A DNA stretch of 64,000 nt, from assembly GCA_035686845.1 (NCBI GenBank), contig DASRZA010000252.1:2101-66100 (forward strand). The letters are read 5' to 3'. Source of the DNA: Armatimonadota bacterium (GTDB taxonomy: Bacteria; Armatimonadota; DASRZA01). Position 1 is the stretch's first letter. Each line of letters starts with the position of its first letter. The translations under genes and the position numbers were made by a program. The notes under the pieces are model-generated. The model searched no databases and was not told the origin of the DNA. It worked only from the letters and a program-made list of their open reading frames with translations. Positions 108-56,067 of the stretch are shown here, in pieces.

Positions 108-524
108 TCAGGTGGGGCAGGTGTTATCCACGGTTACAGTGGTTGATCCGCTGCCCGACGCGCTCCCGGGGCTTCCATCACAACTGCTCGTATAGTTGAC
201 TGTGCAGCTATCAGAAACGGGGTACGTATCGCCGGTTACCGCCGTTCCCGGGATGCTGAATAAGACGACGACGCCGTTGCCGTCAGCCCAGGTAAAGGTC
301 ATATTCTCGGCCGTGCACTCGCCGTTGGCGTCTGGTGTGCCTGACACTGCAGCGTTGAACACTACGGGGACCGTCTGCCCCGCCGGTCCGGTTGTTGGAG
401 TCCCGGTCACGGTGACGCTGATCGCGGCCTGCGCTGCGCCGGCGGCATAGAGCGCCGCCGCGCAAATCATGATAATACTCAAGAGGAACCTTGTCCGACT
501 ACGCATGGTACCGATCCTTTCCAT
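108..524 (-). CDS. small secreted Thr/Gly/Ser-rich protein, hypothetical
   Basis: 138-aa ORF with a clear N-terminal signal peptide (LLSIIMICAAALYAAGAAQA) and several Cys. No recognisable domain. Confidence 0.45.
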   Translation of the reverse strand: MERIGTMRSRTRFLLSIIMICAAALYAAGAAQAAISVTVTGTPTTGPAGQTVPVVFNAAVSGTPDANGECTAENMTFTWADGNGVVVLFSIPGTAVTGDTYPVSDSCTVNYTSSCDGSPGSASGSGSTTVTVDNTCPT

Positions 525-591
525 CCCAACAATCGGGGCGATATTGCCCGATTACGAACGCTGGTGCGACGCAAACCTGGCGCCGCGAACT

Positions 592-2953: not shown

Positions 2954-2997
2954 GAGGCCCCGCCATCAGTGAGGCCCCGCCATCAGTGAGGCCCCGC
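2954..2997. repeat. 17-bp direct tandem repeat GAGGCCCCGCCATCAGT x2.6
   Basis: Exact copies at 2954-2970 and 2971-2987, partial copy at 2988-2997. Lies just upstream of the 2920 start of the minus-strand propeller gene. Confidence 0.6.
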
Positions 2998-3360
2998 AAA
3001 AGAATATAGCTTCTATTTCAACCTCTCGCGCAGGACTCCTCTATTTCCCTCGGCCGCGTCGTGGGCTCGGAACTCAATCCGATTCAAACCGGCGAAATGA
3101 CATACCCGCCTTGACACCAAAGCCCGGACACCAATGCGTGTTTCTTTGGAGATCCGTACGATATTCTACAGCGTTGTCATGAACCCTCGGCGCACCAGTC
3201 ATGAACCCTCCGCTTACCACGATTGCTGAAGACGTCGCCGCCTCGGTGACCAGGTTTGAGGGCGCAACAGTATGCTGCGGCGGCCCCATTTTCAGGAGGG
3301 CCGCTCAATGCTTGTCTCTTCTGAATCGTGCGCTCGCCCGGGACGCGGATGATAAACGCG

Positions 3361-14779: not shown

Positions 14780-15931
14780 TCAGGCTCCCGCATCCTCGAC
14801 TGCCTGCCATACCACCGCGGTCGTGCGCTCCCAGATAAAACGACGAGCGCGCTCGAGACCAGCGGCGTTAAGCCGGTCCCTGAGCGATGGGTCGGTTAAT
14901 ACCTGCTCCAGCGCGCGGGCGAACGGCTCTGGTGAACCCTCCGCCAGGACCGCGGCGTCTTGCAGATTCTCACGCAGCGCCGCGCCGTTAACGCCGACGA
15001 CCGGAGTCCCGCACGCCATCGCCTCCAACGGCGGTATCCCAAAGCCTTCTGCGGTCGAAGGCTGAGCGAGGAGCGCGGCTTCGCGATAGAGATCCACCAG
15101 CCGCTCGGTCTCCACGTAACCGAGGAACCGCACCCTCTCGGCAATCCCGAGCCGGGCCGCGATTTCAACTAATTGCGGCCGCAGCCCGCGATCTTTGCCG
15201 GCCAGGATCAGTGTTAAGTTCGGCTGCCGGGCGAACAAATTCCCGCAGGATTCTATCAAGAGACGGAGGCCCTTTCGCTCCTCGAGATTGCCAACATAGA
15301 GGATGTAGGGAACGACGCCAGGCTCATTACTCTGCGCGTCCCGCGGTGTGAACCATGGATCGACGCCGAGCGGCGCCACAAACGCGCGGCGTCCAAATCG
15401 CCGCTCCACTTCGAGCTGCACGGCTCGAGTGGGCGTGATAAGCGCACGGGCCCGCCGGATGGTGGGCGGCAGGAGCAGCCGGTAGTGAAGATAGTTCTCC
15501 AACCGGGTCTGCCTCAGATTCAGCCCATGGAGATCATGAACGAAGGTTACGGCAGGGCAGGGGGAGAGCAGTGGCATGACGTACGCCGGACAAAACAAAA
15601 CGTCGGCGCGCCACCGCCGCAAGATCCAGGGCAGTTCCACCTGCTGCCAAAAGATGCGGCGCATCCGGCGCGCGCCGGAGAACGGAAGAAAACAGGCGCG
15701 GGACGCGGGGCGCGGGGCGTGCGGCGCCGGGCGCGGGGCGCGGGGCGCGGGGTTGCTGTCGTCCGTCCTCCGTCCTCCGTCCTCCTCGAACCCGGGCCAG
15801 TCACCGGGGACGAAGATCCGTATTTGATGGCCGCGCGGGTCTGCGAGGAGCCGGCGGATCACGCGGTCGGCGGTCTTCTCCACGCCCGAGTAATGTCCCC
15901 AGAGGACGCTCCCGTCAATGGCGATCTTCAT
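14780..15931 (-). CDS. glycosyltransferase family 4 carrying an in-frame 34-codon low-complexity insertion encoded by heptanucleotide repeats
   Basis: GT4 motif EGFGIPPLEAMACGTPVVGVNGAAL. The N-terminal domain is interrupted by FEEDGGRRTDDSNPAPRAPRPAPHAPRPASRAC, encoded by 15692-15793. Confidence 0.75.
   Translation of the reverse strand: MKIAIDGSVLWGHYSGVEKTADRVIRRLLADPRGHQIRIFVPGDWPGFEEDGGRRTDDSNPAPRAPRPAPHAPRPASRACFLPFSGARRMRRIFWQQVELPWILRRWRADVLFCPAYVMPLLSPCPAVTFVHDLHGLNLRQTRLENYLHYRLLLPPTIRRARALITPTRAVQLEVERRFGRRAFVAPLGVDPWFTPRDAQSNEPGVVPYILYVGNLEERKGLRLLIESCGNLFARQPNLTLILAGKDRGLRPQLVEIAARLGIAERVRFLGYVETERLVDLYREAALLAQPSTAEGFGIPPLEAMACGTPVVGVNGAALRENLQDAAVLAEGSPEPFARALEQVLTDPSLRDRLNAAGLERARRFIWERTTAVVWQAVEDAGA
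15692..15795. repeat. heptanucleotide-periodic repeat tract ((GCGGGGC)~7 then (CTCCGTC)3) inside the GT4 coding sequence
   Basis: ~13 consecutive 7-nt units in register: gcggggc x2, gtgcggc, gccgggc, gcggggc x2, gcggggt ... gtccgtc, ctccgtc x2. Total length keeps the reading frame. Confidence 0.7.
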
Positions 15932-22749: not shown

Positions 22750-23900
22750 TTAACTCGCTGGCTGTGATTAGCCGCCGTTCAAGTTCCCATTTTGACTGGG
22801 ATTCGGGAGAGTTTGAGAACGTATTGCCCTTCGCAGGGAGATCATCTCCGGTTGGCGCAGTGGTGTCCATCGAGTCGATACGTTGACTTCCAATTGTGTA
22901 GGACTCGTATACGAGCACGTATTCTATAGTAGCATTCCCCAAGACGCGAAGCCGCAAAAGAACGCCGCGGCGGGGTAAACGCCAGAGCGCACCCGACAGA
23001 CTGCTGGCTTCACAGGCGGGAGCGCTGCTGCAATTGGTCTCTCAGTTGTCGCAGCTCGTCCAGGCTCATTGATTGCAGCGATGCTTCCGGTGTCGCCTCG
23101 TCCCCAAGCGAAGACTGAAGGAGTAGAACCTGGCCAATCAACATACCCTGCTGGAGCCCCTGCTGCAGCCCCTGTTGGAGCGCGTGTCTCATTCGGGCGT
23201 TCTCGTCTCGCCGCATCTTTTCGCGGCCTTCATAGATCTCCCGTTCCAGGTCTCTCTTTGAAAGCACCATCAGTTCCTCCACTGCCTGCCGGATCGCTTC
23301 GTCGTCTATCGTCGCCGGCAGCGCCTTCTCATCTAATGTTTCCCCATGCTTCAGAAAGTACAGCCACTGGTCTATCTCACTCTCCAGTTCTTCCGCTCCC
23401 TTGTTGAACTTCGCCAACTCAAAGAGGTGGATATCCAGATCCTCCGTGAACACTGCTCCGGTGGCGCGGTCGATCAGCCCGAACCGCGAGTGATACACCT
23501 TTCCCGGAAAGATTGTTCCATCGACGAAGCAAACTGAGATCGTGGGCTGAAGCAGACTGTAGTCCCGGCCGGCTGGGAGCTGTTCGGTATACAGCTTGGA
23601 CCAATAGAACATTATCCGCTGGGGCAGCTCCGCAAACCCGATCATCTGCATCTCGACGTTGAAGTGTCGGCCAATCTGGTCCCGAGCCTTGATATCCAGG
23701 ATGGAGAGCTTCTCATCAAAAGCAGCCTTCTCGGTGAAAGGATTGAGGATTTCAATATGCACAATCCTCTGGCCTGGAGGCAGTTGGAGGACGGCGTTGA
23801 GCAGGTCGATCAGGAGGGCAGCAGTGGCGAGTCTGCCAAACAGCCACTTGAATGCAAAATCCACCTTGGGATCAATGCCAGAACTCATACTCGTCCCCGG
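22750..23900. mobile_element. lower-GC (~50-52%) islet carrying an Rpn-family nuclease/putative transposase gene
   Basis: Visible drop in GC relative to the flanks. Bounded upstream (24068-24205) by a composite repeat array. Confidence 0.35.
23010..23888 (-). CDS. Rpn-family recombination-promoting nuclease / PD-(D/E)XK putative transposase (TIGR01784-like)
   Basis: N-terminus DPKVDFAFKWLFG, ...LLIDLLNAVL..., IVHIEILNPF...LDIKARDQIGRHFNVEMQ match the YhgA/Rpn (transposase_31) family. Glutamine-rich C-terminal tail. Confidence 0.65.
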   Translation of the reverse strand: MSSGIDPKVDFAFKWLFGRLATAALLIDLLNAVLQLPPGQRIVHIEILNPFTEKAAFDEKLSILDIKARDQIGRHFNVEMQMIGFAELPQRIMFYWSKLYTEQLPAGRDYSLLQPTISVCFVDGTIFPGKVYHSRFGLIDRATGAVFTEDLDIHLFELAKFNKGAEELESEIDQWLYFLKHGETLDEKALPATIDDEAIRQAVEELMVLSKRDLEREIYEGREKMRRDENARMRHALQQGLQQGLQQGMLIGQVLLLQSSLGDEATPEASLQSMSLDELRQLRDQLQQRSRL

Positions 23901-24067
23901 TTCAAAGGATTCTATTCATTTACGACGCCAGCAGAGCCATTATACACCTTACCCGCGTCCTCATACCGGCGCCGGCTCTTGCCTCAGGCCCCGCGCCGCA
24001 CGAGCGGAGGCGTGCGCCACTATGCGGTCGCGTACCCCGTTCCCCCGCCTCGCGCCTTCCGCCTATC

Positions 24068-24205
24068 CTTCGTCCTCCGTCCTCCGTCCTCCGTCCGCGC
24101 CTCGCGCCCTCTGCCTGTCCTCCGTGCTCCGTCCTCTGTCCTCCGTCCGCGCCTCGCGCCCTCTGCCTGTCCTCCGTCCTCCGTCCTCCGTCCTCCGTCC
24201 GCGCC
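24068..24205. repeat. composite GC-rich tandem array: ~52-bp higher-order unit [(TCCGTCC)3-4 + GCGCCTCGCGCCCTCTGCCTG] x ~2.7
   Basis: Unit copies at ~24068-24118, 24119-24170 and partial 24171-24205. Related GTACCCCG/CCTCGCGCC motif at 24040-24067. Lies in the divergent intergenic region between the Rpn gene and nagB. Confidence 0.7.
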
Positions 24206-24242
24206 CGACCTAACCTGCTAATCTAAAGTACGGAGGTAGTTC

Positions 24243-29189: not shown

Positions 29190-29440
29190 GACGGGGACGG
29201 CCGAAGAAGGATCAATACCGTTCAAATAACGGGCCCAGTGATTGAAATCACGGGCTAGAACCGCACCAAGTCCACCTACGTGGACTCCTGGAACGAGGCC
29301 AGCAGCGTCTTATCTGAACGGTGTTGGAAGAAGGATGAATCAAAAACGCTGGAGTTATAGGCGCCTGTTCCTGCTTGGGAGGAGAGTCCGTGAGAGAGGT
29401 CTGTGGTGGGCGGAGGACGGAGCCGTGAAGCTCCGCGGGA

Positions 29441-29468
29441 TGCGTACCTCGCGCCTCGTACCTCGCGC
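29441..29468. repeat. 14-bp tandem repeat GTACCTCGCGCCT(C/G) x2
   Basis: Exact adjacent copies. Same GTACC(T/C)CGCGCC family as at 24040-24067 and 31895-31950. Confidence 0.6.
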
Positions 29469-29493
29469 CTGATTGCGAAGGGAAGGGAATGCT

Positions 29494-30279
29494 ATGAAGC
29501 TCGGATGTAATACGGTGGTGTTGGGGACGACGGATTTTCCTGCGGCGCTTCAGCACGTTGAGTGGGCCGGTTATAAGTACGTGGAACTGGCGGCGATCAA
29601 AGGGATGTGCGAGCACGTCCGGATCGGGCAGGACCCGGCGGAGATCAAGGATCTCCTGGCGAAACACAGCCTGGAAGCGACGGCGATGGAGGCTGCGACG
29701 AATGATCGGGAGCGGTTGATGGGTTTGTTTGCCCTGGCGCGTGAGATCGGCGTACCCATTGTCAACATTGGGTCGGGGGGTAAGACGGGGGATGAAGAGT
29801 CGACTCGAAACGCCATTCAACTGATGCGGGAGTTCGCGAAGCTGGCGGGTGAGCAGGGTGTTAAGCTGGCGGTCAAGCCGCACGTGGGACAGGCCATCTA
29901 CAACGCTGAAACCGGGCTGCGCCTGGTCTCCGAGGTGAATGATCCGGCGCTGGGTCTCAATTTTGATCCGAGTCACCTTTTCCGGGCCAATGAGACTCCG
30001 GAAGACGTGGCCCCTCGCTGGGGATCCCGGATCATTACCTCTCATTTTCGAGACTGCCCCTGGCGTGAAGGCAGCCCGGGCACGCCCGATCAACAGATTC
30101 CGGGGCGAGGCGTCGTGAACATTCCTGCGACACTGGCGGCCCTGAAGAAGAGTGGCTACACTGGCCCCTTAAACCTGGAGGTCATTGGCGCGGGCGGATG
30201 GGAGCTGTCAAGGGCGATGGGGATCGTCGCTGAAGCTCACGGATATCTGAATCGCTGTCTCCAGGAAATCGGCGTGTAA
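29494..30279 (+). CDS. sugar-phosphate isomerase/epimerase (xylose-isomerase-like TIM barrel)
   Basis: MKLGCNTVVLG...VELAA... and C-terminal metal-binding blocks of AP-endonuclease-2/XI-like TIM barrels. ATG 29494 with SD GAAGGGAAGGGA. The ORF is also open from TTG 29473. Confidence 0.65.
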   Translation: MKLGCNTVVLGTTDFPAALQHVEWAGYKYVELAAIKGMCEHVRIGQDPAEIKDLLAKHSLEATAMEAATNDRERLMGLFALAREIGVPIVNIGSGGKTGDEESTRNAIQLMREFAKLAGEQGVKLAVKPHVGQAIYNAETGLRLVSEVNDPALGLNFDPSHLFRANETPEDVAPRWGSRIITSHFRDCPWREGSPGTPDQQIPGRGVVNIPATLAALKKSGYTGPLNLEVIGAGGWELSRAMGIVAEAHGYLNRCLQEIGV

Positions 30280-31770: not shown

Positions 31771-31837
31771 TGTGTGGATGCGTGAATGTGTGGGTGCGTG
31801 AGTATGTGGGTGCGTGAGTATGTGGGCGCGTGAGGTG
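31771..31837. repeat. ~16-bp tandem repeat TGTGGGTGCGTGAGTA x4 immediately downstream of the GS-family gene
   Basis: Copies at 31771-86, 31787-804, 31805-20 and 31821-37 with point differences. Confidence 0.65.
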
Positions 31838-31894: not shown

Positions 31895-31950
31895 GGCGCC
31901 GCGCGCCTCGGGGATCGCGCCCCGTACCCCGCGCCTCGCGCCCCGTACCT
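31895..31950. repeat. GC-rich repeats of the CGCGCC(C/T)CG(T)ACC family
   Basis: GCGCGCCTCGGGGATCGCGCCCCGTACCCCGCGCCTCGCGCCCCGTACCTCGGGCC. Same motif family as 29441-29468 and 24040-24120. Confidence 0.55.
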
Positions 31951-31978
31951 CGGGCCCTCCCCACGGGAGTCTGATACG

Positions 31979-52446: not shown

Positions 52447-53871
52447 TTAGCGACGCACGGCTGCCCGCCGCCACCATTCCGGGTGGTCGATATGGAGCTT
52501 AATGTAGCCCCCCGAAGGGTCCAGGTAACCGTAATCGGACCAGATGGCGACGCCCTGCCCGTCGATCAGATAGCTGCTGGGGAAGACACGGATTCCGTAG
52601 CGAGTCAGCAGCGCCTTCTGAGGAGCGCCCGGCTGCAGTGTCACGATCGGGTACGATAGATGGGTCTGCGCCAACTCGCTTTTGAGCTCGGCGGGGGTAT
52701 CATTGGCATCAATGACGAGAGCGGTGAATCCCTGGTCCTTCAACGTCTGATAGTCTTTCTCAATCTGGAGAAGCCCCTGGCGGCGAAGCTTAAAGTGATC
52801 GATAAACGCGAGCAGGAGTATCTTCTTGCCTTTCAGCGTGCTGGCGAGGGAGACAGCTCCGCCGTGCGGAGTGGGTATGTTGAATTGAGGCGCTGGCCCA
52901 TGGACCAAACTCGCGTGCATGTTCTCGCGACTGAACGGTTTCGCGCCGGCCGGGCGATGAAACACGAAATCGGAAGGGTTGAGATGGACGTTTAAGTGGA
53001 TGTCGTGGAGGGTGACCGTGTTCGAAGCGCCTACGCCGATCTGAGTCACCTTGCGAAGGAGATGGTCCGGGCCGAAGTAGAGACGGCTCTGCGAATGCCA
53101 GTACGGGTTTACCGGATGTACGACGATGTAGTAGCCATCGGGCCTTCGAGTGGTACCCGAGAACGTCCTACGGTCGCTGGTCACGCTCGATTCCACAATC
53201 TGGCAGCGAACGCCATCGACCACCCCTGTCCCCGCGGCATGAAGGTCGGGCCGGCTGAGATAATTGCGGAGAGCGCGCGGATCGTCCCCGTAGAATGCCT
53301 CAACGGGAGGTAGATCCATGCCGCCCAGTGTGAAGAACGCTTTTCTCACCGGATTGGTGTTGTATCTGATCTGGTGGTGTTCCCAGTCCATCCAGGCGGA
53401 CTGCATCTTACCGTCGGAGACGTCCACGCTGCGGAACCATCCGGACATGACGATACGGCCGATATCCAGCTTCTCCAGCTCTACGACCGCGGTCTCTTCG
53501 GGCATTTTCTTACCGGCGGGCTGATCAATGCCGCCGGTCGAATCAATCGTGATACGTCCGGTGAGCGTCTTGACACGCGCTTCGGCCAGAATGGCCTGGT
53601 GTATAATCGACTGCGCGGATTGCCGATCCGGTTGGGTCGGTCGATTGGTTCGGCCCGGGCGGGCATGCGCCGGGAAGAGCAGCAGACCCAGTCCAACCGC
53701 TGCGGCGAGAAGGGCGCCGTAATAACTGATACGATAGAAGAGGGAGCGCGAAACCGGGTCGCGCCGGCGCATCAGCCACGCGGTCAGAAGTCCAATCGAG
53801 AGCGCCACGGAAACCTGGATTGAAAGGGCTGCGCCAAACGGTAGACGATCAAGAAGGGTCAATGGATGCAT
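52447..53871 (-). CDS. membrane-anchored protein with C-terminal TlpA-like thioredoxin-fold domain lacking the CxxC motif
   Basis: N-terminal TM helices. C-terminal GKKILLLAFIDHFKLRRQG...FPSSYLIDGQGVAIW resembles TlpA/redoxin but with F-K in place of C-x-x-C. Confidence 0.45.
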   Translation of the reverse strand: MHPLTLLDRLPFGAALSIQVSVALSIGLLTAWLMRRRDPVSRSLFYRISYYGALLAAAVGLGLLLFPAHARPGRTNRPTQPDRQSAQSIIHQAILAEARVKTLTGRITIDSTGGIDQPAGKKMPEETAVVELEKLDIGRIVMSGWFRSVDVSDGKMQSAWMDWEHHQIRYNTNPVRKAFFTLGGMDLPPVEAFYGDDPRALRNYLSRPDLHAAGTGVVDGVRCQIVESSVTSDRRTFSGTTRRPDGYYIVVHPVNPYWHSQSRLYFGPDHLLRKVTQIGVGASNTVTLHDIHLNVHLNPSDFVFHRPAGAKPFSRENMHASLVHGPAPQFNIPTPHGGAVSLASTLKGKKILLLAFIDHFKLRRQGLLQIEKDYQTLKDQGFTALVIDANDTPAELKSELAQTHLSYPIVTLQPGAPQKALLTRYGIRVFPSSYLIDGQGVAIWSDYGYLDPSGGYIKLHIDHPEWWRRAAVRR

Positions 53872-54018
53872 CGGAAATCCTCCATGGGCAATCGGGACCC
53901 CGGCGCGTTACCGTGGCGTCGTTCGTCGAGGGGTGAAGGTAACGGCCGTAGTCGTTGTGCCATAGTCGATTATGTCCAGCATTGTAGTCCTCCGCTTCGC
54001 GTCGCGTCAACTCAGGCG

Positions 54019-54070
54019 GGGGACGGAGGACGGAGGACAGAGGACGGAGGACGGAGGACGGACGACGGAT
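54019..54070. repeat. (GGACGGA)~7 heptanucleotide tandem repeat
   Basis: ggacgga x2, ggacaga, ggacgga x3, cgacgga. Reverse complement of the TCCGTCC repeats at 15761-15790 and 24068-24205. Confidence 0.7.
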
Positions 54071-54109
54071 CTCGCGTGCTCCTTGCGCCCGTCTGCGGGG
54101 GGGTGTAGC

Positions 54110-54258
54110 ATGAATCACAACGGCTGCAGTTACAGGCCCCTCTTCCCGCTTCGGGGAGAGGTCGGGAGAAAGGCAAACCAAAGGATGAGGGATGAAGGAT
54201 GAATCACAACGGGCGCAGTTAGAGGCCCCTCTTCCCGTTTCGGGGAGAGGTCGGGAGA
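54110..54258 (+). repeat. tandem duplication (89-bp period) of a 60-bp element containing a 10-bp-stem hairpin, directly upstream of the HEAT-THUMP-MTase gene
   Basis: Copy 1 at 54110-54169 and copy 2 at 54199-54258 (ATGAATCACAACGG(C/G)(T/C)GCAGTTA(C/G)AGGCCCCTCTTCCCG(C/T)TTCGGGGAGAGGTCGGGAGA). Stem CCTCTTCCCG/CGGGGAGAGG with a T-G wobble, which favours RNA on the plus strand. Confidence 0.6.
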
Positions 54259-54285
54259 GAGGTTGAGACGCTGAGAACTGAAAAA

Positions 54286-56067
54286 ATGCCAGCCGACATT
54301 GTTTCTAACCGGCTGACCGCTTTGAAAGCGGCGACGACGGACGAGCGTCTGATCATCGCCGAAGAACTGGCGTCGCTGGCGCCGGCGGCCTCGGACCGTC
54401 TGATTGCGGCGCTGCGACATCCGAACCGCCATGCCCGGTGGGCGGCTGCGCACGCGTTGGGCCGCGGAGGTATCACAGCGGCCGGTCCTGCTCTCCGGGA
54501 ACTGCTTCAAGATCCACAGCCGAGAGTCGCGCGGACCGCGGCGTGGGCGCTCGGACGGATCCGAGACGAAGAGTCCACCCCGGCGCTCATCGCGGCGATG
54601 CGCTCTCCAAACAGCCATCTCTCGACGACCGCGGCGTGGGCGCTCGGGCGGATTGGGACACCGGACGCGCTCGAGGCGCTCTCCGCGGCGCTGGGCGAGG
54701 CGTCTCCCCGGAAGCTCCGGACCATCGCTCTCGCCTTCGCCGAGATCGGTCCCGAGGCGATTGAGTCGCTCGTCACGCTGCTTCGGACCGGATCTGTCGC
54801 CGAACGGACGCGGGCTGCGCATATCCTGGCCCGGTTCGGCGAGAATGCCGTGCCACTGATCCTCCCGCTCTTAGAATCAACCGAGGTGAAGTCGCGACGC
54901 GCGGCCGCCCATATTCTAGGGACGCTCCGGATTCCCGCGGCGGGCGCTTCCGCGAATAATCGTCGCGCGTCGATCGAGGCAGGCCTGGCAAAGGCTTTGA
55001 GTGATGAAGACAGCCGGGTGCGCCGGAACGCGGCCCGGTCTGCTGGCGCGCTGGGTTTGATTTCCGCGCGACCGGCGTTGGAGTCGCTTCTGGGCGGTGA
55101 CCCGGAGCAGGTGAGAGTTGCGGCGAACGCGCTGGCCGCGCTCGGGGATGCGGCGGCCGGCCCCGCGCTGCAATCGGTTCTGGACCGGGAGGATCCGGCT
55201 TTACCTGAAGGCCCTGCCCAGGCGGTGCGCCGGGCGCTGCACCAGATCGACCTCGCGCCGCGAGAGACGCGCAGAGTCGCTTCGCGGCTGCCCGAGGTCG
55301 ATCTGCCTTCTCGCTCTGATTACCTGGCGGTCGTTACAGCGGGGTTGGAAGCTGTGGCCTGGGAAGAGATCAGCGCGCGTTTGGCGGGCGCCTCGCTCAA
55401 ATCATTTGGCGAAGGCACGGTGACGTTTCATTGGACGGGCAGTCCGCAGGCCGGCGCGATTCTTAGATCGGTTCGTCGACTGGCGCAGGGCGGCGCCGAA
55501 CCCAAGGAAATCGCGCTCGCGCGGCGACTCCGTCGCTACCGTGTTCGCACCCTTCCGGCGTCGCTTGAACCGACGACAGCCTACGCGCTCGCTCGACTCG
55601 CTAATCAGGGGGAGCGTGATGTCTTTGTGGATCTTACGTGTGGGAGCGCCACCATCGCGATTGAGCGGGCGCTGGATGGGCCGGCTCGCGCAATATTAGC
55701 GGGAGACATTGATCCAGCCGCCCTGCAGGCCGCCGGAGAGAACGTCGCCGCGGGCGCGCAGCCGGTTCGCCTCGTGCAGTGGGATGCTCGCCGCATTCCC
55801 TTGCGCGACGAGTCGGTGAATGCCGTAGTGGCGAATCTGCCGTACGGCCGCCGGTCCGGTGAGCACCAAGAGAACCTCACGCTCTACCCGGCGATACTCC
55901 TTGAAATTGACCGCATTCTCCGCGGATCCGGCATCGCTGTTCTCCTCACCGCCGAAAAGCGCCTCCTTCGCCGATCCCTCGAATCTCATCCGAATCTCGT
56001 CCTCGTCTCCGAGCGCGAGATCGAAGCCGGTGGTCTGCGTCCGTCGCTGTTCGTGCTGCAGAAGTAA
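54286..56067 (+). CDS. HEAT-repeat (PBS lyase-like) N-terminal region fused to THUMP-like plus class-I SAM-dependent methyltransferase (m2G/N6-adenine-type, NLPY motif)
   Basis: N-terminal repeats RWAAAHALGRGG / RTAAWALGRIRD / TTAAWALGRIG / RAAHILARFG. C-terminal FVDLTCGSATIAIERAL (SAM motif I) and VVANLPYGRR (motif IV (D/N)PPY variant). Intervening THUMP-like region. Confidence 0.6.
   Translation: MPADIVSNRLTALKAATTDERLIIAEELASLAPAASDRLIAALRHPNRHARWAAAHALGRGGITAAGPALRELLQDPQPRVARTAAWALGRIRDEESTPALIAAMRSPNSHLSTTAAWALGRIGTPDALEALSAALGEASPRKLRTIALAFAEIGPEAIESLVTLLRTGSVAERTRAAHILARFGENAVPLILPLLESTEVKSRRAAAHILGTLRIPAAGASANNRRASIEAGLAKALSDEDSRVRRNAARSAGALGLISARPALESLLGGDPEQVRVAANALAALGDAAAGPALQSVLDREDPALPEGPAQAVRRALHQIDLAPRETRRVASRLPEVDLPSRSDYLAVVTAGLEAVAWEEISARLAGASLKSFGEGTVTFHWTGSPQAGAILRSVRRLAQGGAEPKEIALARRLRRYRVRTLPASLEPTTAYALARLANQGERDVFVDLTCGSATIAIERALDGPARAILAGDIDPAALQAAGENVAAGAQPVRLVQWDARRIPLRDESVNAVVANLPYGRRSGEHQENLTLYPAILLEIDRILRGSGIAVLLTAEKRLLRRSLESHPNLVLVSEREIEAGGLRPSLFVLQK

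Follow-up and report, generated by a model that had tools for sequence, protein, structure and literature searches.

The segment at 54017-54275, upstream of a gene for a HEAT-repeat methyltransferase, is most probably one locus of a lineage-specific family of modular intergenic repeats in an uncultured Armatimonadota bacterium, and not a gene-specific switch; we put the probability of this reading at roughly three in four. That the segment holds a duplicated hairpin is real and far beyond chance, as the 25-mer CCCCTCTTCCCG-YTT-CGGGGAGAGG is present exactly twice, at 54137-54161 and 54226-54250, and the number expected from 100 shuffles is zero.

Structure of the repeat locus

The element occupies part of a 414-nt intergenic region, 53872-54285, that separates two divergent genes, a minus-strand gene on the left and a plus-strand gene on the right (Table 1). 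The gene on the right, listed at NCBI as 'HEAT repeat domain-containing protein [Armatimonadota bacterium]', is the repeat's neighbour and lies outside the repeat itself. The entire 414-nt region is base-for-base identical across four independent assemblies, namely that of the window (the whole 64-kb stretch of DNA analysed here) and three further metagenome assemblies, and it is therefore not an assembly artefact.

Table 1. Positions in the window of the composite element, its flanking genes and related features
Feature	Position	Strand	Basis or remark
Third, diverged copy of head and hairpin unit, hairpin degraded	29335..29400	+	BLAST against the window; unit-profile nhmmer, E 2.6e-9
Redoxin-domain protein gene, 474 aa	52447..53871	-	Pfam, NCBI naming; divergent, upstream side
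Sigma-70-like promoter match, TTGACG-18-TACAAT	53981..54010	-	Consensus match only
(GGACGGA)7.6 heptamer array, first module	54017..54069	+	TRF, 91% matches
GC-rich linker module TCTCGCGTG...CGCCCGTCTGCGGGGGGGTGTAGC, its 3' end a degenerate GGATGAA remnant	54070..54109	+	Colinear with L008(rc) 335-400
Head-plus-unit copy 1: ATGAATCAC, linker AACGGCTGCAGTTACAGG, hairpin, purine tail TCGGGAGAAAGG	54110..54173	+	
Heptamer head CAAACCAAA + (GGATGAR)3 + ATCAC, re-duplicated between units	54174..54207	+	TRF
Unit copy 2: linker AACGGGCGCAGTTAGAGG, hairpin, tail TCGGGAGAGAGG, truncated start of a further unit TTGAGACGCTGAG	54208..54275	+	
HEAT-repeat + UPF0020/THUMP-type SAM methyltransferase gene, 593 aa	54286..56067	+	Pfam; downstream side

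Much of what a sequence-only reading had said about the anatomy of this region proved accurate. It described two near-identical 60-bp copies with an 89-bp period, and these are the inner part of a direct repeat of 74 nt (54100-54173 and 54189-54262, 89% identity, spacing 89) within which the 60 nt are 93% identical. It also described a 10-bp stem with a 3-nt loop in each copy, and we place the arms at 54139-54148 and 54152-54161 around a CTT loop in copy 1, and at 54228-54237 and 54241-54250 around a TTT loop in copy 2. All pairs form on the plus strand, one of them being a U-G pair that becomes a mismatch on the minus strand, again as stated. The (GGACGGA)7 array just upstream was recovered too; it reads as tandem GGAGGA, a Shine-Dalgarno-like sequence, and contains 15 GG tracts in its 7.6 units. 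The distance from the 60-nt copy to the ATG at 54286 is the 27 nt given earlier, and is 23 nt when counted from the last purine tail and 10-23 nt for the array.

One part of that description needs revision. The 29-nt spacer between the copies is indeed purine-rich, but it is not unique sequence, being a (GGATGAR)3 run (TRF 54181-54203, period 7, 3.3 copies) that supplies the ATG of copy 2. The heptamer array, this so-called spacer and both hairpin copies make up a single composite element, 54017-54275, because window positions 54017-54173 align module by module with contigs L008 and L007 from the searches described below. The (GGACGGA) module also opens the composite in L007 (3737-3771) and in L008, and a (GGATGAR)n-ATCA head also stands 5' of the units in L004-L008. 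Relative to the GC-rich linker of the window, L008(rc) 335-400 has an inserted module of the CGTACCTCGCGCC type.

Seen across these contigs, the family has a fixed syntax, in which (GGACGGA)n comes first and may be followed by a GC-rich module of the CGTACCTCGCGCC type, after which come (GGATGAR)n, a linker and finally the tandem hairpin units. The family linker is ATCAnAAACGCTGRAGTTAYAGG. The hairpin forms the core of a unit of 57-58 nt, arranged head to tail in the other contigs, with the consensus ACGCTGAAGYTAYRGG-CCCCTCTTCCCG-YTT-CGGGGAGAGG-CCGGGAGAGAGGTYGAR, where CCGGGAGAGAGGTYGAR is the purine tail; five units are present in L004, three in L007, four in L005 and about 4.6 in L008. In folding, the 5' arm of the consensus unit has two possible partners, the proximal 3' arm and the purine tail, and pairing with the tail gives a longer hairpin of 16 bp. 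A profile of the unit finds both window copies with nhmmer (54123-54173, E 4.9e-14, and 54217-54266, E 4.4e-15), and the junction ...GGTTGAGACGCTGA at copy 2 matches the unit-to-unit junctions of L004 and L007.

How did two copies come to lie 89 nt apart? Both window units carry AACGG for AAACG, CAGTTA for AAGTTA and GGTCGGG for GGCCGGG, and these substitutions are absent from all other units. Since the substitutions are private to the pair, an 89-nt segment comprising head and unit was duplicated in place at the methyltransferase locus, rather than two elements having been inserted separately.

Distribution of the repeat family

The sequence-only reading had held that the element was not seen elsewhere in the window. 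This proved mistaken, as the window contains the third copy listed in Table 1 and also TCCGTCC/GGACGGA arrays at 24066-24200 and 15758-15785. The third copy sits between a sulfatase gene and an unrelated gene for a TIM-barrel sugar-phosphate isomerase (29494-30279), on the upstream side of the latter, and is followed by GGAGGACGGAG and (CGTACCTCGCGCCT)2 modules. The 24066-24200 array is part of a 52-nt higher-order repeat of 3.1 copies.

The head pattern common to the three window copies was scanned against JGI metagenome contigs, and the scan returned five contigs, all of them in one study, which also holds the window's own contig. The unit profile finds three units at two loci in the window and more in L004/L007 (which are the same locus), in L005 (which is L128-131) and at two places in L008. 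L128 supplies a further 16 kb of the same genome and has units at three places. The window proteins are entered at NCBI as 'MAG TPA ... [Armatimonadota bacterium]' under accessions HET6384456-478, and the L007 protein HET6383193 (locus tag VFJ58_07365) and the L005 protein HET6386091 fall in the same accession block and bear the same name, Armatimonadota bacterium. From this shared block we infer that the window, L007 and L005 contigs belong to one MAG. At least eight loci are found on contigs of one MAG, the only unbiased sample among them being the 64-kb window, with two loci. The sequence-only reading had itself named many copies genome-wide as the observation that would count against its proposal of a dedicated leader, and many copies are what we find.

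The genes that flank the loci are functionally unrelated, and include genes for a sulfatase, a TIM-barrel isomerase, ankyrin, PSCyt/PSD1, enolase-family and hypothetical proteins. Units occur 5' as well as 3' of genes. At seven of the nine loci with determinable orientation they share the direction of at least one neighbouring gene, and the unit at L128 9276-9332 is antisense to both of its neighbours, so that co-orientation with neighbouring genes is a tendency, not a rule.

Outside the lineage, the exact hairpin pattern has no match in 185,579 species, each represented by one genome, and none in the IMG/VR viral contigs. The heptamer has a very different distribution. Arrays of three or more GGACGGA units occur at more than 113 loci in Verrucomicrobiota, Chloroflexota, Planctomycetota, Cyanobacteria, Gemmatimonadota, Armatimonadota (Chthonomonadaceae) and others, and in none of the 113 (GGACGGA)3 loci searched in other phyla was the array accompanied by the hairpin unit or any of the other modules. 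Because heptamer loci elsewhere are without the hairpin unit, the heptamer is a generic microsatellite and the hairpin minisatellite is specific to the lineage. We note that the orientation of (GGACGGA)n at the 113 loci proved too noisy to be of use, since the arrays contain no stop codons and about half of them lay 'inside' spurious ORFs.

The closest ortholog of the methyltransferase, with 57% identity, is on an 89.9-kb ENA contig, and the 359 nt upstream of it contain no copy of the repeat. The window is rich in tandem repeats generally, with 20 TRF rows in its 64 kb versus a single short one in 21.8 kb of the relative.

Does the element regulate the methyltransferase gene?

The sequence-only reading favoured a structured 5' leader, that is, a riboregulator, an attenuator or a leader-peptide system that controls the HEAT-THUMP methyltransferase gene. 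One can see the appeal of such a proposal, as the element is immediately upstream of the gene and in the sense orientation, each copy has a stable hairpin, and copy 1 opens a 30-codon ORF. We consider gene-specific regulation of this kind extremely doubtful, however. It is contradicted by the dispersal of the element, which is found also beside unrelated genes and at the 3' ends of genes and is missing upstream of the closest ortholog. Even the position is not simply that of a leader: the element does lie upstream of the methyltransferase gene, but the region is divergent, with the redoxin-domain gene transcribed away from it on the minus strand. The promoter-like match in Table 1 is the only one in the 414 nt and is directed at that minus-strand gene; no sigma-70-like site on the plus strand was found within the 414 nt, the inside of the element included.

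The search and folding that had been recommended as checks likewise gave the proposal no help. An Rfam scan of 53500-54700 gave best scores of 12-16 bits with E > 2, which is noise, and at gathering thresholds there were no matches in the whole window and none in five related loci, where relaxing the E-value likewise brought up nothing beyond noise. An Rfam-type riboswitch or cis-regulatory RNA was rejected for want of a match at the gathering score. When 54000-54300 was folded as either strand, the z-scores were close to 0, the region as a whole being no better than shuffles; single-unit folds had z-scores from -0.3 to -2.0, and all folds together ranged from -0.2 to -2.0. No terminator-like site was found in 53800-54350, and the hairpins are followed by TCGGGAGA, not by a T/U run, so that an attenuator of the intrinsic-terminator type was also rejected.

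What of the small ORFs? Their lengths and translations are as the sequence-only reading gave them: copy 1 encodes 30 codons, MNHNGCSYRPLFPLRGEVGRKANQRMRDEG and then a stop, and copy 2 encodes seven, MNHNGRS, with the stop at codon 8. Among ten heads, however, the ORF lengths are 30, 7, 45, 5, 5, 5, 25, 5, 7 and 5 codons; in about five or six of the ten the product is a five-codon MNQKR or MNHKR before the stop, and in most copies the ORF is cut to 5-8 codons. The ATG of the ORF is part of a GGATGAA heptamer, and the small ORF is probably an accident of that heptamer. Leader-peptide attenuation was rejected because the length of the ORF is not conserved, its ATG is heptamer-derived and the region upstream of the ortholog has no such ORF.

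A broader question is whether the family as a whole works as a cis-acting RNA module, with purine-rich arrays and anti-Shine-Dalgarno/Shine-Dalgarno-like hairpins acting on many genes. Such RNA might offer ribosome standby or decoy sites, G-quadruplexes or platforms for RNA-binding proteins, in a post-transcriptional layer spanning the lineage, comparable to that put forward for the TAACTGA heptamers of Beggiatoaceae. We judge a family-wide RNA module to be unlikely, although there are leads towards it. The units are mostly sense to neighbouring genes, and the U-G pair makes the hairpin perfect on the sense strand only. The apparent ribosome-binding sites of this organism are of the GGAGG type, as at 24231 and in front of gene starts on L007 and L008, and the array repeats GGAGGA every 7 nt. 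The heptamers also have the features of a G-quadruplex repeat, being tandem and G-rich, with at least four G tracts, and intergenic at this locus as well as elsewhere; in vitro, an RNA made of three GGAGGAC repeats has been found to form G-quadruplexes (PMC4536295). Heptamer repeats are known as a class, both as G-rich repeats near ORF ends (PMC4692102) and as TAACTGA (PMC4679880).

Several observations weigh against this family-wide role, however. Units lie on both the 5' and the 3' sides of genes, the L128 unit mentioned above is antisense to both neighbours, and the TCCGTCC arrays at 24066-24200, which lie immediately 5' of a plus-strand gene, run the opposite way. At the methyltransferase gene, the last purine tail is too far from the ATG to be a Shine-Dalgarno site. 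In a covariation test of the stem in 18 distinct units, 92.1% of positions were paired; column shuffles gave 91.8%, and only one double change was seen. As pairing is no different from that of the shuffles, conservation of the stem is explained by recent common descent. Some selection on the hairpin structure is still conceivable, given that the hairpin, with its U-G pair, is retained in 15-18 of the 18 units and that the unit L005 2634 has two apparently compensated pairs. A stronger form of the proposal, in which the polar purine-rich composites constitute a lineage-wide post-transcriptional layer, the variable-number arrays in untranslated regions tuning how stable the mRNAs of many unrelated genes are or how they are loaded with ribosomes, and changes of copy number between populations serving as the tuning knob, seems to us decidedly unlikely.

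Copy number, mobility and DNA-level function

Some arrays of the family differ in size between samples. At one locus the (GGACGGA) array has 5.4 copies in one sample and 3.4 in another, and a 16-mer array at a single locus has 6.6, 4.4 or 3.6 copies. These heptamer and 16-mer differences are less than a sequencing read in length and are likely to be real. The 58-mer array at the locus shared by L004 and L007 has five and three units respectively, and as both are short-read assemblies this difference could be an artefact of assembly collapse. Another locus has 4.0 copies in all four assemblies, and the methyltransferase locus shows no variation across its four. Where copy number does differ between samples, replication slippage or unequal recombination would account for it.

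Might the repeats then act as DNA, either as protein-binding or structure-forming sites, comparable to the gyrase and IHF sites of BIMEs, or as contingency repeats that tune two divergent promoters? The variation in the heptamer and 16-mer arrays at other loci would suit the second role, the heptamer array does abut the -35 element of the region's only promoter-like match, and homopurine/homopyrimidine tracts may favour unusual DNA structures. Yet the array touches the -35 element and does not lie between -35 and -10, the methyltransferase locus is invariant in four assemblies, and the neighbouring genes do not belong to the surface or contingency class. A DNA-level function of this sort strikes us as very unlikely.

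The sequence-only reading had offered, as its second choice, a duplicated small mobile repeat. The kind of element was well chosen, as this is a dispersed family, but no terminal inverted repeats or target-site duplications, the hallmarks of a MITE, were seen and the two window copies are attributable to the local 89-nt duplication. Could the family nevertheless be a classical MITE, or a REP-type element, moved by a hairpin-recognising transposase that is IS-encoded or a RAYT? Dispersed copies that keep the hairpin conserved are numerous within one genome, as they would be for a MITE. A separate MITE-like family, with inverted arms of about 55 nt, adjoins several of the arrays in the same genome, and transposase genes are nearby, a PDDEXK_2 gene in the window (23010-23888) and a DDE_5 gene on L128. 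The REP/BIME pattern is also present in part, the hairpin being a short GC-rich imperfect palindrome that is extragenic and lies in mosaics with heptamer and GC-rich modules.

However, the edges of the composite have no terminal inverted repeats, neither (GGACGGA)n nor (GGATGAR)n, which form the left edge, being complementary to the right edge, GGGAGAGAGGT + TGAGACGC or CTG. No target-site duplications were found at the edges; inspection of the flanks by eye showed no duplication, and the sole relative is too distant to offer an empty site. No transposase is linked to the element, the ends of the IS in L128 do not match the repeat, and the element is GC-rich. The units are direct tandem repeats, not the inverted doublets of REPINs, and the hairpin foot lacks a conserved GTAG. 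Movement by a hairpin-recognising transposase therefore appears quite improbable. A CRISPR array was considered separately and rejected, as the units are 58 nt long and abut elsewhere, the 29-nt 'spacer' is a heptamer run, and no Rfam CRISPR model matches at threshold.

Origin and significance of the family

What history would account for the locus, if it is one member of a lineage-specific family of modular intergenic repeats? Most likely, replication slippage or unequal recombination creates the arrays and alters their size, and the arrays also spread to new intergenic sites, the 89-nt duplication at the methyltransferase locus being a local event of this history. As the arrays are usually oriented like a neighbouring gene, they are probably co-transcribed with it as untranslated RNA rich in purines and hairpins. 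Transcription of the element would lengthen the methyltransferase mRNA by a purine-rich leader of about 270 nt that contains the hairpins. Any effect of this long, structured 5' UTR on the gene, for example on the stability of the mRNA, would be a by-product and not a dedicated design.

For annotation, the consequence is that a false lead is removed: the region is neither a riboswitch nor an attenuator nor a leader peptide. In its place there is a previously undescribed modular repeat family of an uncultured Armatimonadota lineage, in which a hairpin minisatellite is chained to heptamer microsatellites, and the intergenic DNA of the lineage is unusually rich in short tandem repeats. Such arrays have practical effects, since they break short-read assemblies (L004 ends inside one) and can insert in frame into genes, for example the glycosyltransferase gene at 14780-15931; they are also usable as strain markers of the VNTR type. 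The wide occurrence of (GGACGGA)n across phyla, taken together with published G-quadruplex formation by this heptamer as RNA, offers a modest starting point for studies of bacterial G-quadruplex repeats.

Comparison with known repeat systems

The heptamer modules invite comparison with heptameric simple-sequence repeats, of which the STRR heptamers of cyanobacteria are one class. Like those repeats, (GGACGGA)n and (GGATGAR)n form intergenic arrays that range from a few units to about 20. Published examples are GGGNATC in Xanthomonas and Nostoc (PMC4692102) and TAACTGA in Beggiatoaceae and cyanobacteria (PMC4679880). The arrays described here differ from these in unit sequence, in having GG instead of GGG tracts, and in belonging, as one module, to a larger composite in which a hairpin minisatellite is also present. 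As to structure, the RNA AGGAGGACGGAGGACGGAGGACA forms parallel G-quadruplexes by NMR and CD (PMC4536295).

The hairpin units recall two further systems. With the REP/BIME elements of enterobacteria and pseudomonads, which are often co-transcribed, they share a GC-rich imperfect palindrome of about 23 nt, an extragenic position and an arrangement in mosaics with short motifs (PMC3184786). Unlike REP/BIME, the units are direct and not alternating or inverted, they have no GTAG foot, and the family is confined to one uncultured lineage. With MIRU/VNTR loci they share direct tandem units in the range of 40-100 bp (58 nt here, with a period of 57-58), an intergenic position, a mostly common orientation with the flanking genes, absence from homologous sites in relatives and a copy number that may vary (PMC3184786). 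The ORFs of MIRUs, in contrast, are in phase and overlap the stop and start codons of the neighbouring genes, whereas here the unit length of 58 nt is not divisible by 3, and the array ends short of the ATG at 54286 and leaves the start codon untouched. Nor are MIRUs preceded by heptamer arrays.

In architecture, the closest known system is the pneumococcal BOX element, boxA-(boxB)n-boxC, in which the number of boxB copies varies (PMC3049150, PMC3184786). Both are composite, modular intergenic repeats with a head and an internal module in a tandem array of variable number. Both are dispersed beside unrelated genes, are predicted to form stem-loops if transcribed, may give rise to small ORFs by accident, and cluster with other repeat families. 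The two have no sequence relation, however; the present family is GC-rich and belongs to Armatimonadota, its head is built of heptamer microsatellites, and neither a conserved boxC-like tail complementary to the head nor a link to an IS was found. The family is best read as ordinary repeat DNA, a new family of a well-known bacterial kind that resembles BOX, MIRU and BIME.

Repeat modules inside and between genes

Judged from its sequence, the GT4 glycosyltransferase gene of the window appears to have taken up a repeat module: both of its heptamer arrays (Table) are in frame, and the insert that they encode in the Glyco_transf_4 domain, EEDGGRRTDDSNPAPRAPRPAPHAPRPASRA, is of low complexity. A higher-order repeat, composed of CGCCTCGCGCCCTCTGCCTG and (TCCTCCG)n, occupies the divergent region between a transposase gene and a glucosamine-6-P isomerase-like gene, and ends 38 nt before the ATG of the latter, in whose sense orientation it would carry the C-rich, anti-SD-like strand. 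The further short tandem repeats of the window given in the Table (CGTACCTCGCGCCT, TGTGGGTGCGTGAGTA, the GCGCCCCGCGCCTC type and a 17-mer) are intergenic. The composites of L006 and L008, two metagenome contigs with the hairpin unit, contain the GC-rich 13-14-mers again as modules, in one case inserted in a hairpin loop.

Table. Coordinates of repeats and flanking genes
Feature	Sequence	Position	Strand	Remark
(GGCGCGG)8.3 + (GTCCTCC)4	window	15695-15785		inside GT4 gene
GT4 glycosyltransferase ORF	window	14780-15931	-	
PD-(D/E)XK-family transposase gene	window	23010-23888	-	flanks 52-nt repeat
52-nt higher-order repeat	window	24046-24205		3.1 copies
Glucosamine-6-P isomerase-like gene	window	start 24243	+	flanks 52-nt repeat
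CGTACCTCGCGCCT	window	29443-29470		x2
TGTGGGTGCGTGAGTA	window	31773-31834		x3.9
GCGCCCCGCGCCTC-type	window	31896-31957		x4.4
17-mer	window	2954-2997		x2.6
~55-nt arms	window	29225-29290		solo
~55-nt arms	L005	117-190, 245-324, 2813-2875, ~2995-3054		inverted pairs
~55-nt arms	L008 (reverse complement)	485-560		solo
~55-nt arms	L128	6617-6868, 9347-9564		inverted pairs

Distribution and copy number

How widely are these modules spread? Contig L126 (ENA ERZ27256814) holds a 60%-identical homolog of a protein of the hairpin-bearing contig L005, and represents either a related organism or a paralogous region in the same sample. L126 has heptamer and 16-mer arrays (TCCTCCG x4.3; GGTGAGTGTGTGGGAG x3.2), and its end carries a head resembling (GGATGAA)3, but the hairpin unit was not found there, which argues that the microsatellite modules reach further within this clade than the hairpin minisatellite does. 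Beyond the clade, arrays of at least three GGACGGA units, the longest of about 23, occur at more than 113 loci on genome contigs of many bacterial phyla, with multiple loci per MAG in Leptolyngbyaceae RU_5_1, Chthonomonadaceae SRP272529_co1_250, Pirellulaceae Prado166 and Thermomicrobiales La3. A crude ORF analysis, whose gene calls are unreliable, gives a hint of bias in orientation: the purine strand lies sense to the gene upstream in more cases (38 versus 19).

Copy number is not constant between samples, as compared at the L005 locus in four samples (L128-L131) and between L004 and L007, two contigs of another locus. GGACGGA copies were 5.4 versus 3.4, those of the 16-mer GAGAGTGAGACGGTGA were 6.6, 4.4, 3.6 and 3.6, and those of the 58-nt hairpin unit were 5 in L004 versus 3 in L007, possibly an assembly artefact. 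Short-read assemblies are fragmented by these repeats, since the end of contig L004 falls within an array.

A second dispersed family

We note a second dispersed repeat family, distinct from the hairpin unit and built of ~55-nt arms that often adjoin hairpin-unit arrays. Each arm contains two hairpins with compensated stems, the first NNNN-AT-TGAA-AT-NNNN and the second G(C/T)CCAC-CTNC-GTGG(G/A)C. No Rfam family matched the arms: the best-scoring one, CRISPR-DR28, reached 28 bits against a threshold of 35 bits. With their spacing of ~100-130 nt, the inverted pairs of L005 and L128 look, in sequence, like a MITE.
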